Virus record (IMG/VR): IMGVR_UViG_3300044724_003874
Location: 1-24,647 of that record
Reading direction: 5' to 3' (one strand)
Length of the DNA stretch: 24,647 bases
Source: a virus
Taxonomy: Duplodnaviria; Caudoviricetes
Part shown: positions 1,392 through 23,979 of the stretch, piece after piece
Position numbering within the stretch: position 1 is the stretch's first letter
Layout of the letters: every line of letters begins with the position of its first letter
Notes under the pieces: model-generated
The model's input: only the letters and a program-made list of their open reading frames with translations
What the model was told of the DNA's origin: nothing
Database searches by the model: none
Position numbers and translations under genes: made by a program

Positions 1392-1889
1392 CTAAAGCTG
1401 CTCAAAAACGTTGAAAGGCACGCTTATAGCGGTTTGAAAAAACGCCGATGGCTGCGGGGCTGCTATTACGCTTGGTCCCGATAATGGACCCAACTGAATA
1501 CCTTCGAAGATTTCGCGAGTGCAAAGACTGCAAATTCGATCAGCCAACTCATAATTGGCGCCTGGTCCTGTCCCTTTTGGAGTGAAAACGTTCGCTTTGA
1601 CGGTGCCAAAAACTTGATTCAAAGCATTACTTGCTAACCCCATTGTCAAGTAAGAGGTTTGATCGAACGTCACTAAGCACTGAACAAACGAATCATTTGG
1701 CGTTGGCTTGTAGTCTTGATTGTAAAAAACAAGAGGAGTAAGCCCTGGCTCAACTGATTGAGTCACAATGGTTAGACCGTTTTGACTTATGAGGATGTCA
1801 CCGCTTTGAAGTGCAATTTTTGCGCCAAAGCCAACAATGAAATGCGTTTCAATAGCTGCCCGAACAGTGTTGAGATCTACAGCAGCCAT
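1392..1889 (-). CDS. Tail terminator/completion-like protein, copy 2 (paralog with insertion)
   Basis: Start reassigned to MAAVDL at 1889 (TAATG coupling); shares VQCLVxF, FTPKGxGPGANY and GPxVxAxPxP..FQT with 964-1389. Confidence 0.65.
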   Translation of the reverse strand: MAAVDLNTVRAAIETHFIVGFGAKIALQSGDILISQNGLTIVTQSVEPGLTPLVFYNQDYKPTPNDSFVQCLVTFDQTSYLTMGLASNALNQVFGTVKANVFTPKGTGPGANYELADRICSLCTREIFEGIQLGPLSGPSVIAAPQPSAFFQTAISVPFNVFEQL

Positions 1890-2239
1890 TAGCCCCTCCT
1901 GACGATTTTTTGATATTGCTGTTGCGCCCAAGCTTCAAGCTCTTTGCCAATCAGCTCTGGGAAGCCGGGTCTAGTCCCTTGGCGGGTTCTGAACTTGCCT
2001 CCCCATGATGCAGGCAAGTTGGTGCCATAGCAAACCGGCTCTGCATACTCCATGTTGTTGGTCACTTCGCCAACATAAGGCTCAATTTTGTTTTGCCATG
2101 CGCCTTGAAGGCGTCCAGTATCAACCGGGGTTTCTTGTATGACTCGTCCCTCCCATTCAAGCGTTGTAGCTTTTACGAGCTTACGAATCTGCCCGTCCAT
2201 GTGGTTGCCGATCTGGTTTAGCGGGATCTGACGCGCCAT
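1889..2239 (-). CDS. HK97 gp10-like neck/tail completion protein
   Basis: TPVDTGRLQ..W and N.EYA motifs; position. Confidence 0.75.
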   Translation of the reverse strand: MARQIPLNQIGNHMDGQIRKLVKATTLEWEGRVIQETPVDTGRLQGAWQNKIEPYVGEVTNNMEYAEPVCYGTNLPASWGGKFRTRQGTRPGFPELIGKELEAWAQQQYQKIVRRG

Positions 2240-10927: not shown

Positions 10928-11244
10928 TGAAGCACTTGCGCGATCTGCGCTGCGGTCTTAATGCAGCCCAGTGCAGCACCAAGGTTGTTCTGTTTCCTCG
11001 CTTCCTTTTGCAGGGTGGCAAGCTGGGCCAGGATCTCTGCTGTAAAAGTCAGCCGGTCCGTTTCCCAGTCAGCCCGGATAAGGTCGCGTGCCTTGGCGAT
11101 ATAGGTGTCTGTGGTGCGTTCTGCGGCCTCCCATTCCTTTGCTGCGTACTGCATGATTTCGGATCGCACAGCACCGTTGGACAGGAGACGGGCGACGCGA
11201 TTGACCCTCATGTCCATTTCAATTTTTGTTGACTTCTTACTCAT
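10924..11244 (-). CDS. terS: Terminase small subunit (putative)
   Basis: About 106 aa helical HTH-like protein overlapping the terL start (ATGA). Confidence 0.65.
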   Translation of the reverse strand: MSKKSTKIEMDMRVNRVARLLSNGAVRSEIMQYAAKEWEAAERTTDTYIAKARDLIRADWETDRLTFTAEILAQLATLQKEARKQNNLGAALGCIKTAAQIAQVLQ

Positions 11245-12749
11245 CAATCCTCCTTAGTTGCAAGAACCGCTTTTTCTCCAGTGAAGCTTTCCCACCTCTT
11301 CACGATAACGTCGCAATATTCAGCTTTGAGTTCCACGGTGTAGCAGCGTCGATTTGTGACCTGTGCGCCTATAAGAGTGGAGCCAGAACCGCCAAAGGGT
11401 TCAAGGCACAGCCCATTTTGTGGAAGGCTTGAAAGCATGACGCGCTTCATCATGTCAACAGGCTTTGGAGTTGCGTGGCCGTGCCTTTCGTCGCCATGAA
11501 CGCGGGAGAACTCCCAAACGTCGCGCATCGCTTCATGAGCATTGTCAAAATATGACCTAGCAGCTGTTGGACTTGCAGGCCCTCCTTTTACTTTTTTCCA
11601 TTCTGAATTAATCGACCGCCAGGGGCGTTGAAATAGGCCGGTGAATTTTTTCTGAAGAGTGACGTAATGCTTTTCAGGAATAAGCGTGAACTGAGAGCGT
11701 GTGAACCAATGGCCGTACATCTGAACACCGCATAGCTCTTTTAATTTGCCTGGATCCAATCCTGCGGCTTTTGCTTGTGTCTCAAGGTAAAAGCGAAGCG
11801 ATTCCCACGTTTCAGGAAAGTCTTCGGTGTTAATACTGCCCCGGAACTGGTTTCCAATTTGAAAGAACAAGCAATGCTCTGTTGTTGTTGGATATGTAAC
11901 TTGAGACGGTGACTTCATGCCAGGAATGCACTTTTTATCCCAAACGATTTGGTTGCAAAGTTCCATCACTTCTGAATCACCAAGACCAGCTTTATACCAA
12001 AGCCGCCAAAGTTCGGGAGCGTTTCCCCAGATGTAAGCGGAGGCGTTGTCCTCAAGGTATGGGCGAAAGGTTGCCCACCATTCCATTTGAAAGTTGTCGA
12101 GCTTCTCGTCATAGAGGTTGTCATTAGCTACACCTTCTGAAGCCTTGCCCATGCCATACGGAGGATCAGCATGAAGCAATGCCGCCTTTTCTCCACCGAG
12201 CAAACGCTCAATGTCGGTGGGGCAGGTTGAATCACCACAGAGAACGCGATGCTTCCCAAGGATCCAAAGGTCACCTGGTTTAGTGATGGGATCCTCTGGG
12301 GGTTCTGGTACGTCGTCAGGATCGGTGTTGCCTTCTTCTGGTTCGAGTTCAGTGACGGCTAGAAGTTCATCAAGGTCGTCTTGGTCAAACCAAGGGCTGA
12401 TGTCATGTTCTTCTGAGAGCTGATGCAGCATCTCCTGATCCCACTCGCTGAGATCAGCCGTACGGTTGTCAGCAAGAGCTAGGCCGACCTTTTGCTCTTC
12501 TGTTAGGCCCGTGCGTTTAACGGCGATGATCTCGTCACCGTTAGTTTCAATAATGCGTAGGTTCTTGATGCCTGCGGCTTTCGCCCCATCGATAGTGCCA
12601 TTACCCGCAAGAATGCGATTCTCTTCATCAATAACGATGGAACGTGCAGCTCCGTAACGCTGCAAGGATTCTTTGATGAGTTCTGAAGACCGATCAGTTC
12701 TACGTCGTGCGTTTTTGTGATCGGACTTGAGTTCGCTTATAAAACTCAC
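11244..12749 (-). CDS. ParB-like domain fused to an N6/N4 DNA methyltransferase (beta class)
   Basis: N-terminal NAR..I..SL..YG..RSIVID...LAGNG..ADNRTA; GDLWILG.HR..CGDS; DPPY before H.TPKPV and EPFGGSGST. Confidence 0.9.
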   Translation of the reverse strand: MSFISELKSDHKNARRRTDRSSELIKESLQRYGAARSIVIDEENRILAGNGTIDGAKAAGIKNLRIIETNGDEIIAVKRTGLTEEQKVGLALADNRTADLSEWDQEMLHQLSEEHDISPWFDQDDLDELLAVTELEPEEGNTDPDDVPEPPEDPITKPGDLWILGKHRVLCGDSTCPTDIERLLGGEKAALLHADPPYGMGKASEGVANDNLYDEKLDNFQMEWWATFRPYLEDNASAYIWGNAPELWRLWYKAGLGDSEVMELCNQIVWDKKCIPGMKSPSQVTYPTTTEHCLFFQIGNQFRGSINTEDFPETWESLRFYLETQAKAAGLDPGKLKELCGVQMYGHWFTRSQFTLIPEKHYVTLQKKFTGLFQRPWRSINSEWKKVKGGPASPTAARSYFDNAHEAMRDVWEFSRVHGDERHGHATPKPVDMMKRVMLSSLPQNGLCLEPFGGSGSTLIGAQVTNRRCYTVELKAEYCDVIVKRWESFTGEKAVLATKED

Positions 12750-18490: not shown

Positions 18491-18553
18491 CGGTCACGCC
18501 GGACACCTCGGACACCTCGGACACTTCGGACACTTCGGACAGCCTGGACAGAA
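18491..18553 (+). repeat. 9 bp tandem repeat (CGGACACYT), about 7 units
   Basis: cggtcacgc cggacacct cggacacct cggacactt cggacactt cggacagcc tggacagaa. Confidence 0.9.
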
Positions 18554-21394: not shown

Positions 21395-21625
21395 TTAACC
21401 GTTGCCTTGCAACCTTGAAATCAGGCGATCCAGATACCAACTTGCCTTGCCAGCGTCTTGAAGGCAGTTGCCCTTATGCCACATCCTAAGCAGATATTTC
21501 AACGCTTGGCCTTGCAAATAACCGCTTACTGCGTCGTCAGCCTTTTCCACTGAATCTTCAATGATTTCAATTGCTTCGATTCGGCCTTGGGTGTAATGAT
21601 CCGGCGAGTTGATTAAGTCTGACAT
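21395..21625 (-). CDS. DUF3310 protein (T7 gp1.7 nucleotide kinase-like domain)
   Basis: D.IN.P.HY..G.IEAI...G.ALKYL.R...KG...QD..KA.WYL. Confidence 0.85.
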   Translation of the reverse strand: MSDLINSPDHYTQGRIEAIEIIEDSVEKADDAVSGYLQGQALKYLLRMWHKGNCLQDAGKASWYLDRLISRLQGNG

Positions 21626-22146
21626 TAGCTAGCAATAGACGGCATAACCCGCAGATGGTTGTTGTAGTTGCCTGTCACCGCATAGCTAAGTGCTGGAACA
21701 TTGCTCATTCGATGAAAAACCATTTGTCCAATTTTCAGGTTGGGATATAAATGCAAGCCGTGATAACGGCGCTCATTCTTTAACTCAAGCGTCAGCTTGC
21801 TGTTATTCCAGCCAGGGTCACACCAACCAGCCAACAAATGATTTAAACCTTCTCTGGCACGGCTTGATTTCAATACGAACGCAGCCGATATGTCATCAGG
21901 CAGATTAAAAGTCTCAATGGTCTCAGCTAGTACAAACTCACTAGGTGCTAAATAATAAGGATCCTCCTCTGTTCGGTCTGAAATATCAATATCAATTAGC
22001 TCACGCTTATCGCTTACCTCAATCATCAAGCGATGGCCAAGACGAAGATCCAAGCTTGCCGGATTCAACAGTTCTGGGCAAAACGGCCAGACCATCTGAT
22101 GGCTATCGCACAAGGCACGGATTTCGTGATCGCACAGAACCGCCAT
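21625..22146 (-). CDS. dcd: dCTP deaminase / dUTPase-fold enzyme
   Basis: LNPASLDLRLG, KSSRAR.G, DPGW...LTLEL, KIGQ; start reassigned to MAVLCD. Confidence 0.9.
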   Translation of the reverse strand: MAVLCDHEIRALCDSHQMVWPFCPELLNPASLDLRLGHRLMIEVSDKRELIDIDISDRTEEDPYYLAPSEFVLAETIETFNLPDDISAAFVLKSSRAREGLNHLLAGWCDPGWNNSKLTLELKNERRYHGLHLYPNLKIGQMVFHRMSNVPALSYAVTGNYNNHLRVMPSIAS

Positions 22147-22213
22147 ACAGGTCAGCAAAAAATGGTTGACAGTCCCAACATACCCTAGTGCTCGCTTCCC
22201 CTATCCCGTGTTT

Positions 22214-23332
22214 TTATTTAACGTCAACGAGAATTGCCCAACCTGTCCCAGGCGCTTCACATTCCCAGCGGCGCAACCAACTCTTACGGCCATAGTGCAC
22301 GTACTCACCGCTTTTTTGACTGTTGCTTTTGTAGCCACCATTCAAAATGTCAGCTTGGCCATTAGGGTCATGAAAAATAAAAGCTTCTGGCGTATAGCCA
22401 ACACAACAATTCCAATGTCCTCCTCCGCTTGGGTTTGAAGCTGGCCCTTTATGCAACCAACCAACAGCAACTGGGCGATTATTGTTGATCTCCTCTTCCA
22501 GCATCTTTGCTGTGCCGTTAGTAATAAAGCGAGCTTTCAATCCGCATTCTTGCAGCGTACTAAGTTGCGCTTCAACAGACGTAGTATCGCCAAAATCGCT
22601 GCGAATATTGTTATAGACATCGTCGCTGCTGACTTTGCCGTAATACTGCGCGATCATTGCACAGCTGCTTGAAAAGCATTCGCGATAACCTGCGCCAGAT
22701 TCGTTGTCTAGCTGGTACTGATATGGGACATCTAAAACCTTTTCGCTTGAACCAGATGTTTCGTTTTCGTTCATCAAGCGGATTAACTTTTCTGCATAGT
22801 TTGGATCAGTAGCGTATCCCTCGCTTATTAAGTCGCGAGCACAATCTTCGCGGGTGGTTGCACTGTTGACACCTCGATAGCTTTTAAAATTCTTATACCA
22901 GCGAGTTGCTAAGTAATCAATGCAATCGCCAAGGCTTTCAAAATCAATAAAACTGTCTTTTATTGAGATGTATTCGCCGTTGATGTACTCCGTCGTTTTG
23001 ACTTCCGTACCATCGCCTTTCAACCCGAACGCATTCCACTTTCCAGAGAAATGCTTGCCCCAACCGGATTCAAGCGCCCATTGAGCTGCAACGCATTCAG
23101 GGAATTTAACTCCAGACTCTTTGGCTAGTCTCTTAACTCCGCTCCAGCTGTTGTCTGACTGTTTACCGGCTTGGCTCCATGTTGCAAACCACGGTCTGTC
23201 ACGCTGCATTGCAGTTTTGTAACCATTATCAGCAAGGTCTTCCTCTAGCAGCGGAATACTTGCTGCCTGATGAGGCAAGCCTTTGTAATACCTAAAAAGC
23301 TGCTCTAGGGTAATCGCTTTACTGTTCGTCAT
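22214..23332 (-). CDS. Modular endolysin: GH73 glucosaminidase plus C39-like cysteine peptidase
   Basis: AAQWALESGWG, N.FGLKG, GYATDPNY..KL; then VPY..Q.DN...RECFSSSCAM, GHW, HDP.G. Confidence 0.9.
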   Translation of the reverse strand: MTNSKAITLEQLFRYYKGLPHQAASIPLLEEDLADNGYKTAMQRDRPWFATWSQAGKQSDNSWSGVKRLAKESGVKFPECVAAQWALESGWGKHFSGKWNAFGLKGDGTEVKTTEYINGEYISIKDSFIDFESLGDCIDYLATRWYKNFKSYRGVNSATTREDCARDLISEGYATDPNYAEKLIRLMNENETSGSSEKVLDVPYQYQLDNESGAGYRECFSSSCAMIAQYYGKVSSDDVYNNIRSDFGDTTSVEAQLSTLQECGLKARFITNGTAKMLEEEINNNRPVAVGWLHKGPASNPSGGGHWNCCVGYTPEAFIFHDPNGQADILNGGYKSNSQKSGEYVHYGRKSWLRRWECEAPGTGWAILVDVK

Positions 23333-23549
23333 TATTCCAGGGTGATCTGATGTGTAGGTCGTCGATTTGAGTTGGTGGTGGCATCACTGGCGGCTGTAAT
23401 TTGTGCCAGCGTTCAACCTCAGCATCTAAGCGAGGTTTTAGGGTTGCCTCGAATTTGCGACGTTGAATTGCACGCTGAAAACCGTCAAGCGGTGATCGCG
23501 TTGAGAACCTAAATAACCACTTGCCATCAGCGGGAATCAGCCCTTTTTT
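23319..23549 (-). CDS. Start-less -1 frame extension of the holin-like gene
   Basis: Open frame KGLIPADGKWLFRFSTRSPLDGFQRAIQRRKFEATLKPRLDAEVERWHKLQPPVMPPPTQIDDLHIRSPWNNDEQ* entered at A AAA AAG. Confidence 0.6.
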   Translation of the reverse strand, partial: KKGLIPADGKWLFRFSTRSPLDGFQRAIQRRKFEATLKPRLDAEVERWHKLQPPVMPPPTQIDDLHIRSPWNNDEQ

Positions 23550-23686
23550 CCCTTTAAAGAACGCAGAACAGTAAACAGGAGTTGAAACACTGAGTTGTCC
23601 TTGAGCTTGCTCATTCCAATCAGCTCACTAGCGGCTGCGACCACAATCCAAAATGCAGGATGCGCTAAGACTTCTTCGATGCCCAT
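23537..23686 (-). CDS. Holin-like 49 aa membrane protein
   Basis: MGIEEVLAHPAFWIVVAAASELIGMSKLKDNSVFQLLFTVLRSLKGKKG: hydrophobic helix, amphipathic helix, basic end; upstream of the endolysin. Confidence 0.65.
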   Translation of the reverse strand: MGIEEVLAHPAFWIVVAAASELIGMSKLKDNSVFQLLFTVLRSLKGKKG

Positions 23687-23703: not shown

Positions 23704-23979
23704 TTAGTCAAGTCTAGCCTTAGAACTTTCCAAGACACTTATGCGGTTGCCATGATCGTTTAGGCGTTCGTAGATTTCGCGGCGATCAGCATTGGCCTGA
23801 ACTTTTTCCGCCTTCATGTCCTGATGCAAGTCTTCAAGTTTCGTTGCAATAGACTCGACACCGGCTGTGAGGCGAATAACCGCTTCACGGCTTTCGCTGG
23901 TGCGTCTGGTGAATCCAGAAACGCTCATCCCTGCAATACCAAGAGACGCGCCTAAAATTGCGGCGTAGATTTCAATCAC
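23704..23979 (-). CDS. Membrane protein with coiled coil (lysis-module, holin or hemolysin-like)
   Basis: N-terminal hydrophobic helix then heptad-rich region ending RL..H..RI..LE. Confidence 0.65.
   Translation of the reverse strand: MIEIYAAILGASLGIAGMSVSGFTRRTSESREAVIRLTAGVESIATKLEDLHQDMKAEKVQANADRREIYERLNDHGNRISVLESSKARLD

Follow-up and report, generated by a model that had tools for sequence, protein, structure and literature searches.

The 24,647-nucleotide virus record IMGVR_UViG_3300044724_003874 (Duplodnaviria; Caudoviricetes), here called the window and analyzed over its whole 24.6-kb length, carries head, tail and terminase-like genes, as judged by eye from the translations of its open reading frames (ORFs). 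On its minus strand, a gene for a 91-residue membrane protein is followed by a gene for a 49-residue membrane protein, an apparent 205-nucleotide gap and an endolysin gene. The 49-residue, or short, gene is the subject of this analysis: it ends in a slippery heptamer, past which the -1 frame runs on through the gap as a candidate C-terminal extension made by programmed ribosomal frameshifting. The features of the locus are as follows:

23704..23979, minus strand: gene for the 91-residue membrane coiled-coil protein, with an N-terminal hydrophobic helix and a coiled coil (PHROG 26178)
23537..23686, minus strand: gene for the short product of 49 residues, holin-like (PHROG 22542, function not assigned in PHROGs)
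23546..23558, minus strand: heptamers T_TTA_AAG (23558-23552) and G_GGA_AAA (23552-23546), in phase here, not conserved in relatives
23543..23549, minus strand: heptamer A_AAA_AAG, conserved, one codon upstream of the stop
23319..23543, minus strand: extension in the -1 frame, 74 residues plus stop, with an aromatic segment, a helix (residues 18-48), a Pro-rich linker and an IxSPW strand
22214..23332, minus strand: endolysin gene, 372 residues, with an N-terminal non-catalytic domain, a glucosaminidase domain (PF01832) and a C39 peptidase domain (PF13529)
21625-22158, minus strand: dCTP deaminase gene, directly following the endolysin gene

Fifteen phage records match the 49-residue protein at E 0.1 or better, 11 of them named Synechococcus phage and two Cyanophage; the match in KBS-S-2A is 80% identical. 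These matches point to a picocyanobacterial host, and the gene would be part of the late lysis cassette of a siphovirus that infects picocyanobacteria, probably Synechococcus.

The slippery site and the open -1 frame

The 49-residue ORF ends, on the minus strand, in TCT TTA AAG GGA AAA AAG GGC TGA, and all three of the overlapping in-phase heptamers that the initial annotation described are present in it. The site goes beyond chance: the three strong heptamers are found in frame at 0 of the 5392 codon positions in the ATG-initiated ORFs of at least 100 residues in the window. As a feature, the trio stands only in part, since A_AAA_AAG is conserved, whereas the other two come and go in relatives. 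The -1 frame is open from stop to stop (23624-23319); the 74 codons read after the last heptamer would bring the long product to 122 residues and end at a stop overlapping the endolysin start (23332) by 14 nucleotides, in agreement with the description of an open frame that fills the gap and reaches into the endolysin gene. The reported lack of an early start also holds, the first ATG, GTG or TTG in this frame being GTG 23387, followed by ATG 23384; further upstream, the near-cognate starts comprise only CTG 23540 and ATT 23537/23468. The junction is crossed by contigs of the independent runs X2 and X5 without any difference or gap, and by a contig of run X11 with 4 differences and no gap. No indels are listed in any of the four runs compared, of which the RNA run X20 covers the upstream gene of a relative, not the junction.

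Conservation among relatives

To place the site among its relatives, 531 loci holding the short gene or its extension were fetched, mostly from scans that took the best 80 matches each (e.g., the best 80 of 245, 518, 120, 168, 463 and 446). From the first 371 loci plus the window, 371 match the short-gene profile (L333 being dropped) and reduce to 219 distinct junctions, to which a further 160 loci added 105, for a total of 324. Both heptamer and extension are present in 268 of these, neither in 43, the heptamer only in nine and the extension only in four. With the 56 junctions found via the extension removed, 268 are left, of which 212 have both, 43 neither, nine the heptamer only and four the extension only. 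Because only the first junction set went into the extension profile, scoring that set with it is circular; the independent 105 junctions, scored with this earlier-set profile, divide into 64 with both, 33 with neither, six with the heptamer only and two with the extension only. All matches to the extension profile are in the -1 frame, which has a median open length of 79 codons versus 11 for the +1 frame.

By eye, five of the nine heptamer-only cases (L215, L403, L419, L427 and L428) show short or divergent extensions; of the others, L228 ends at the contig end, L200 and L374 have shrunken extensions, and L530 is without one. The tail is optional: 43 junctions are without both tail and site. 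A tree of the short proteins (FastTree, 83 rows, about 45 columns, without support values) requires 13 state changes for the extension, 14 for the heptamer and 19 for the two jointly, which suggests, without amounting to a test, repeated joint losses of site and extension. At L005 (3001-3419), the short gene is 94% identical to that of the window and the extension is of another subtype (40% identical), as would be expected from recombination at or near the slippery site. In L212 (a contig of Cyanobium sp. N5-Cardenillas) and L484, a GTG overlaps the stop, and these have possibly switched to a separate, coupled gene. At L080 (3001-3400), a TAG stands where L196, a close relative, reads CAG, which might reflect an error, a recent loss or read-through.

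Selection on the site and on the second frame

The 268 sites are of four types, A_AAA_AAG (230), C_CCA_AAG (34), A_AAA_AAC (3) and G_GGA_AAG (1, in S-EIV1). The residue before the Lys-Lys pair is of nine different kinds, always on an A-ending codon. In the flanking ORFs of the same loci, A_AAA_AAG accounts for seven of 373 Lys-Lys pairs. Codon choice can be followed most directly in the Phe-Pro-Lys subfamily: where Phe-Pro is written TTC CCA, the extension is present in 34 sequences and absent from one; where other synonymous codons are used, it is present in one and absent from 30 (Fisher p = 2e-16, a value that overstates the independence of these sequences because they are related). In 74 disjoint pairs, the extension read in the -1 frame has a pN/pS of 0.16, equal to that of the short ORF (0.16), while its other two frames give 1.50 and 1.77; 560 of 854 substitutions in the extension fall at third positions of the -1 frame. 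These patterns indicate that the site is selected as nucleotides and that the second frame is under purifying selection. In the host context, the family of the Cyanobium genome G001, a carrier of the gene, has tRNA-Lys(UUU) in 80 of 81 genomes and tRNA-Lys(CUU) in six of 81, as counted by a pattern search that could miss variants.

Stimulators and other routes to the -1 frame

No Shine-Dalgarno (SD)-like pairing is found upstream of the site, where 8-mers that end 5-17 nucleotides before it have a mean anti-SD duplex energy of -0.3 to -0.9 kcal/mol. Downstream, folding in 31 representatives exceeds that of shuffled sequences only modestly, with a mean z of -0.6 to -1.0 for windows starting 0-40 nucleotides past the site; against synonymous resampling, the values are -0.95 in the subfamily of the window and -1.85 in a 13-member subfamily. 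The 13-member LGKTW set does have a stem, in which compensatory changes are few; no conserved stem was found in the 61 sequences of the window's subfamily, and no universal stem across the family. The weak stem CCGCU/AGUGG, initially noted downstream of the site, is accordingly not conserved, the consensus fold of those 61 sequences consisting of two pairs. In 226 of 268 cases, the next base past the site is G or C.

The downstream frame might instead be reached without a ribosomal shift, as a separate gene re-initiated at the codon overlapping the stop (CTG in the window), or through slippage of RNA polymerase on the A run; we consider this pair of routes very improbable. A separate start would fit the CTG found over the stop in 141 of the 207 heptamer loci, the domain's ability to stand alone in myoviruses, the annotations of S-CBS1, S-CBS3 and S-EIV1, which call part of the -1 frame as a gene, and the GTG over the stop in L212 and L484, which lack a canonical site and may be true exceptions that use this start. 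The remaining codons over the stop, however, are CTA (46), TTA (8), TTG (6) and GTA (6), such that CTA, TTA or GTA stands there in 60 of 207, and 198 of 264 extensions have no ATG or GTG ahead of the conserved helix; because of this variation and this lack, a separate start is unlikely, and it would leave the codon-level covariation unexplained. As for polymerase slippage, the efficient bacterial case described in the consulted sections of a review (PMC5009743) occurs on nine A or T; here the run is six A, and the C_CCA_AAG type and the G_GGA_AAG type of site are without a run, which makes this route unlikely too. A last alternative, that the true gene is one continuous ORF interrupted by sequencing error or decay, could appeal to a few in-frame long records (P0009, P0011, P0013, P0045 and P0047), which are rare, those listed being one contig each. 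Of 8000 proteins scored, 17 have at least 92 residues, most of them through a start extension or a read-through, against 1491 family matches at normal length (E 0.001). The independent assemblies agree without an indel, and the same -1 phase recurs in 268 junctions, including those of cultured phages; these refute the homopolymer error that the initial annotation had allowed for, and we assign this alternative a negligible probability.

The extension domain and its myovirus homologues

In the model of the extension, a long helix at residues 18-48 (predicted local distance difference test, pLDDT, above 90 for residues 21-50) is joined by a Pro-rich linker to a terminal strand. Extensions shrink to about 40 residues in L382, L403 and L419, and the shortest natural ones retain only the helix end, the linker and an IxAPW-type motif. 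No fold in BFVD matched the extension model at E 0.001 or better, the ESM Atlas gave no usable match for the extension, and no protein of at least 194 residues containing it was found among 8000 scored, which is weak evidence. A complex prediction for the extension with the N-terminal domain of the endolysin scored 0.02 where the mark was 0.32, with no folded controls, and is no evidence either way.

A relationship emerges with PHROG 3316, a stand-alone hypothetical protein of 130 residues in T4-like cyanomyoviruses. Its C-terminal half is matched by 11 of 92 extensions (best E 8e-10), the window's own extension not matching directly; the extension profile matches all seven stand-alone PHROG 3316 proteins (E 7e-10 to 1e-3, Z=1000) and none of the reversed sequences, and hhalign aligns the two with a probability of 96.6 (E 6e-10). 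The common module comprises a helix with Asp-x-Ala-Ile, a linker and an LGGxMxIxAPW strand. The N-terminal hydrophobic helix of PHROG 3316 is unrelated to the short protein (probability 0.09). Hence, the -1 frame would encode a real domain, for which the frameshift supplies the anchor here. In five of the seven genomes (ACG-2014f, S-N03, S-B68, S-CREM2 and S-PM2), the PHROG 3316 gene is one to a few genes away from an endolysin, lysozyme or lysin gene; lytic genes are not clearly near it in B3 and not near it in S-CREM1. In these proteins, basic residues precede the hydrophobic helix (KD19 1.2-2.0). A lipoprotein-like signal is seen in L540:3001-3399 (S-PM2 p159, canonical lipobox) and L541:3004-3423 (S-CREM1_30, a near match), and not in the other five. 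In S-CREM2, a truncated PHROG 3316 paralogue without the terminal strand, gp171 (L546:2349-2627), lies directly before the full copy gp172; by eye, the two look like a short/long pair made by duplication, not frameshift.

A weaker link, through podovirus extensions and PHROG 22672, leads to PHROG 6464 (the P-SSM4_112 type, 57 records): the hhalign probability is 7, and podovirus extensions match at E 1.5e-4 and 6.6e-4. Members of PHROG 6464 have no membrane helix (KD19 0.33-0.65).

The short membrane protein and its neighbours

The short protein is predicted (pLDDT 80) to form a hydrophobic helix at about residues 6-25, a basic loop, an amphipathic helix at residues 32-44 and a basic end, with a KD19 of 1.61 and a hydrophobic moment of 1.81. 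Over the 324 junctions, the count of Lys and Arg is 0.00 before helix 1 and about 5 after it, and since these residues occur only after helix 1, an N-out/C-in topology is predicted. It resembles holins in being small, with a membrane helix and a charged C terminus, and in adjoining the endolysin. The extra basic N-terminal residue typical of dual-start genes is not seen across the 324 junctions, and the window has a single N-terminal Met. The ESM Atlas returned only unnamed clusters for the short protein.

The endolysin N-terminal domain occurs within 700 nucleotides downstream in 206 of 251 extension-bearing loci, and it follows the short gene in 32 of the 49 extension-less loci with enough sequence; the catalytic domains of these adjoining endolysins vary. 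In the window, this domain (23332-23150) is a conserved unit of 55 residues with the pattern LxDLFRYY...HQ...W, common to endolysins with different catalytic domains, and it has weak matches also in short open frames of 63-71 residues. The coiled-coil membrane gene is the usual neighbour: of 189 upstream ORFs, 160 fall into a single cluster. It sits downstream of the short gene in L215, L216 and L219. Relatives of the 91-residue protein weakly match PHROG 937, "hemolysin" (9 of 20, best E 1e-4). In the podoviruses S-B28 and WH11-B, the short and coiled-coil genes stand just before the small terminase gene, the position that the holin gene occupies in T7; in P60, the gene comes after the lysozyme gene. 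This neighbourhood supports a role in lysis and does not tell which membrane gene is the holin, and the 91-residue upstream gene is an equally good candidate. Of the initial description as a holin-like lysis gene, it is the placement in a lysis cassette that the neighbourhood supports; the identity as a holin stays putative, with no holin match in Pfam or PHROGs.

A homologue of the short protein, unannotated, also occurs in a 4.3-kb single-stranded DNA phage, Microviridae sp. SD_MC_44 (MH572431.1; L125:2501-2641), with E 2e-12 against a profile excluding it. Flanked by the scaffolding and Rep genes, in a genome with no annotated endolysin, it has neither heptamer nor extension; on this one record, it is a candidate single-gene lysis protein.

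A proposed mechanism and its rivals

Taking these findings together, conservation, phase, codon covariation, purifying selection and the lack of a conserved start strongly support the initial proposal that one gene yields products of 49 and 122 residues, and programmed -1 ribosomal frameshifting at A_AAA_AAG is very likely. The two Lys tRNAs on A_AAA_AAG would re-pair one base back, aided by the weak pairing of AAG by the host's single tRNA-Lys(UUU), after which 74 codons would be read; the two resulting proteins would share the same membrane anchor. Both forms might then act in lysis with the 91-residue coiled-coil protein and the endolysin, a function that is likely for both in view of the neighbourhood. 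More tentatively, and with somewhat less than even confidence, we postulate that the short form, as a holin-like subunit, makes up the bulk of the membrane lesion and that the long form is a minority co-subunit, its tail in the cytoplasm with the terminal beta-strand motif borne on a helix and a Pro-rich tether. This long form would restrain or time the lesion in an antiholin-like fashion, with a ratio hard-wired by the slip rate. In the broader sense of a real shift, a lysis function and, for the long form, some part in regulating lysis, the proposal is reasonably probable.

Several observations weigh against it. No SD stimulator and no universal 3' stem were found, and therefore the slip rate could be low. 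L530 carries the site without an extension, L212, L272, L420 and L484 lack a canonical heptamer before an intact extension, and L080 has a TAG two codons into the -1 frame despite an intact heptamer and extension; the junction counts are, moreover, not phylogenetically independent. With regard to function, 50 family members have no match to the holin families in Pfam or PHROGs, a fold search of the short-protein model against the PDB gave nothing at E 0.001 or better, and helix 1 is just moderately hydrophobic and carries a conserved Glu. The basic N termini of the PHROG 3316 proteins and the lipobox of S-PM2 p159 would put the module in the periplasm, so that its predicted side of the membrane differs between the stand-alone proteins and the frameshifted form. 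PHROG 6464 genes are not near lytic genes in the four of four cases examined.

The chief rival for the long form is that the frameshift is real and that the protein reaches from its membrane anchor, by way of the helix, the Pro-rich tether and a terminal amphipathic beta-strand, to the wall or outer membrane, taking the part of a spanin in phages without a recognised one. The stand-alone myovirus homologues would suit such a role, with basic residues and then a hydrophobic helix, a canonical lipobox in one of seven and a near lipobox in another (by eye), and a place beside lytic enzymes in five of seven genomes; besides, the eight window proteins scanned include no convincing spanin match, the 91-residue protein being weakly Rz-like at E 0.087. 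The charge bias of the short protein, however, predicts C-in, none of the 324 short proteins has a lipobox, no C-terminal membrane helix is seen, extensions may be as short as about 40 residues, and the PHROG 6464 relatives are without a membrane helix, all of which make the spanin-like role unlikely. Less probable still is a function outside lysis, as an assembly factor of the G/GT kind (e.g., for tail fibres) or a host-interaction protein of the late region. The gene does come after tail-fibre genes in S-CBS1 and S-CBS3, PHROG 6464 members adjoin gp3/uvsY, nrdB or nrdC, and in S-B28 and WH11-B the gene is without an adjacent endolysin, the endolysin N-terminal domain not being found there with a single-sequence query. 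Against this stand the membrane-helix make-up, the persistence of the gene beside exchanged endolysins (in L210, by eye, between two lytic-enzyme-like ORFs), the lack of a tape-measure gene downstream of it and the absence of S-CREM2 gp172 from the virion proteome rows 160, 165, 174 and 176 of the portion consulted (PMC10665884).

It is also conceivable, with a very low probability, that the shift mainly meters endolysin translation by re-initiation and that the peptide is incidental. In 186 of 227 motif-bearing extensions, the first frame-0 ATG or GTG lies 1 or 4 nucleotides past the conserved Trp codon, and extension-less loci have the endolysin start right at the short-gene stop, as such metering would have it; yet the extension pN/pS of 0.16, the use of all synonymous Pro and Ala/Ser codons in the terminal motif, the existence of the module as a separate myovirus protein and the fact that the next gene is at times a terminase, HNH or coiled-coil gene speak against it. 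Translational coupling to the endolysin may be a side benefit of the frameshift that we favour.

Other features of the window

The window has no tRNA genes. A 501-residue ORF (11244-12749, minus strand), just upstream of the small-terminase-like gene, appears by eye to join a ParB-type N terminus to a DNA methyltransferase. Two adjacent ORFs (964-1389 and 1392-1931, minus strand) resemble, by eye, paralogous tail-terminator-type proteins, and a short tandem repeat at about 18495-18545, in a region of small ORFs, encodes SEV four times in one frame.

Significance and comparison with known systems

The shift is not annotated in any of the cultured-phage records examined. Part of the extension is called as a gene in S-CBS1 (gp23), S-CBS3 (gp22) and S-EIV1 (AHV82131), and in KBS-S-2A the region is blank; the present finding corrects these annotations. 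Literature searches found no description of this frameshift, a mention in supplements being possible. In its consulted sections, a review covers, as phage frameshifts, those of tail chaperones and of capsid or tail extensions, mentions lysis only in old MS2 references, and does not contain the words "holin" and "cyanophage" (PMC5009743); nor were "frameshift" and "holin" found in the corresponding part of PMC6157547.

With a confidence that falls just short of even, we propose that siphoviruses, podoviruses and myoviruses of picocyanobacteria share a hitherto unrecognised lysis factor, a membrane-tethered helix-linker-beta-strand module, which would be its own gene in T4-like phages and a frameshift product of a holin-like gene in small phages, acting at a fixed ratio as a second lysis component (a timer or a breaker of the outer envelope). 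If true, this would be a case of programmed frameshifting in the lysis of double-stranded DNA phages for which the literature searches gave no precedent, and it would offer a way into the question of how cyanophages get through the envelope of cyanobacteria. In phages that infect the ocean's major primary producers, burst size depends on when lysis occurs, and the holins and spanins of these phages are largely unidentified; the short gene, its long form and PHROG 3316 are now candidates, present in cultured phages such as S-CBS1, KBS-S-2A, S-B28 and S-PM2.

The shift in dnaX shortens the product, and that described here would lengthen it. The A_AAA_AAG heptamer itself is the same as in Escherichia coli dnaX and in the IS3 family of insertion sequences (PMC5009743, PMC4066793), and most of the host-family genomes searched have a single tRNA-Lys(UUU); unlike in those systems, no internal SD 10-14 nucleotides upstream and no conserved stem were found here. 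The G/GT tail chaperones of lambda and other tailed phages are alike in the heptamer just before the stop, the shared N terminus, a ratio set by slippage and sites of the G_GGA_AAG type (PMC5009743, PMC3483164). They differ in that the present gene, which adjoins an endolysin or small terminase gene and has no tape-measure gene downstream, codes for a small membrane protein with no sequence or family match to them.

The mycobacteriophage LysF1a/LysF1b cassette similarly has two small membrane genes and an endolysin, and one of its proteins has a single N-terminal helix and a predicted N-out/C-in topology, like the 91-residue protein here; the consulted part of that report mentions no frameshift, no homology has been demonstrated, and the host here is a Gram-negative cyanobacterium (PMC13056207). 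The PHROG 3316 and 6464 proteins (S-PM2 p159, S-N03 QIN96827 and ACG-2014f AIX31555; P-SSM4_112) have the same C-terminal module; their genes stand alone and encode an N-terminal helix, hydrophobic or amphipathic, that is unrelated to the one here. Lambda S105/S107 and phage 21 S68/S71 are holin/antiholin pairs made from one gene by dual start, and XhlA/XhlB form a two-protein holin-like cassette. Like the dual-start pairs, the gene described here would give two products of one lysis gene at a set ratio; those pairs differ at the N terminus through the choice of start, whereas here the difference is a 74-residue C-terminal domain added by frameshift. A conserved shift in a lysis cassette would add to dual starts and separate genes as a means of obtaining two lysis proteins at a set ratio.

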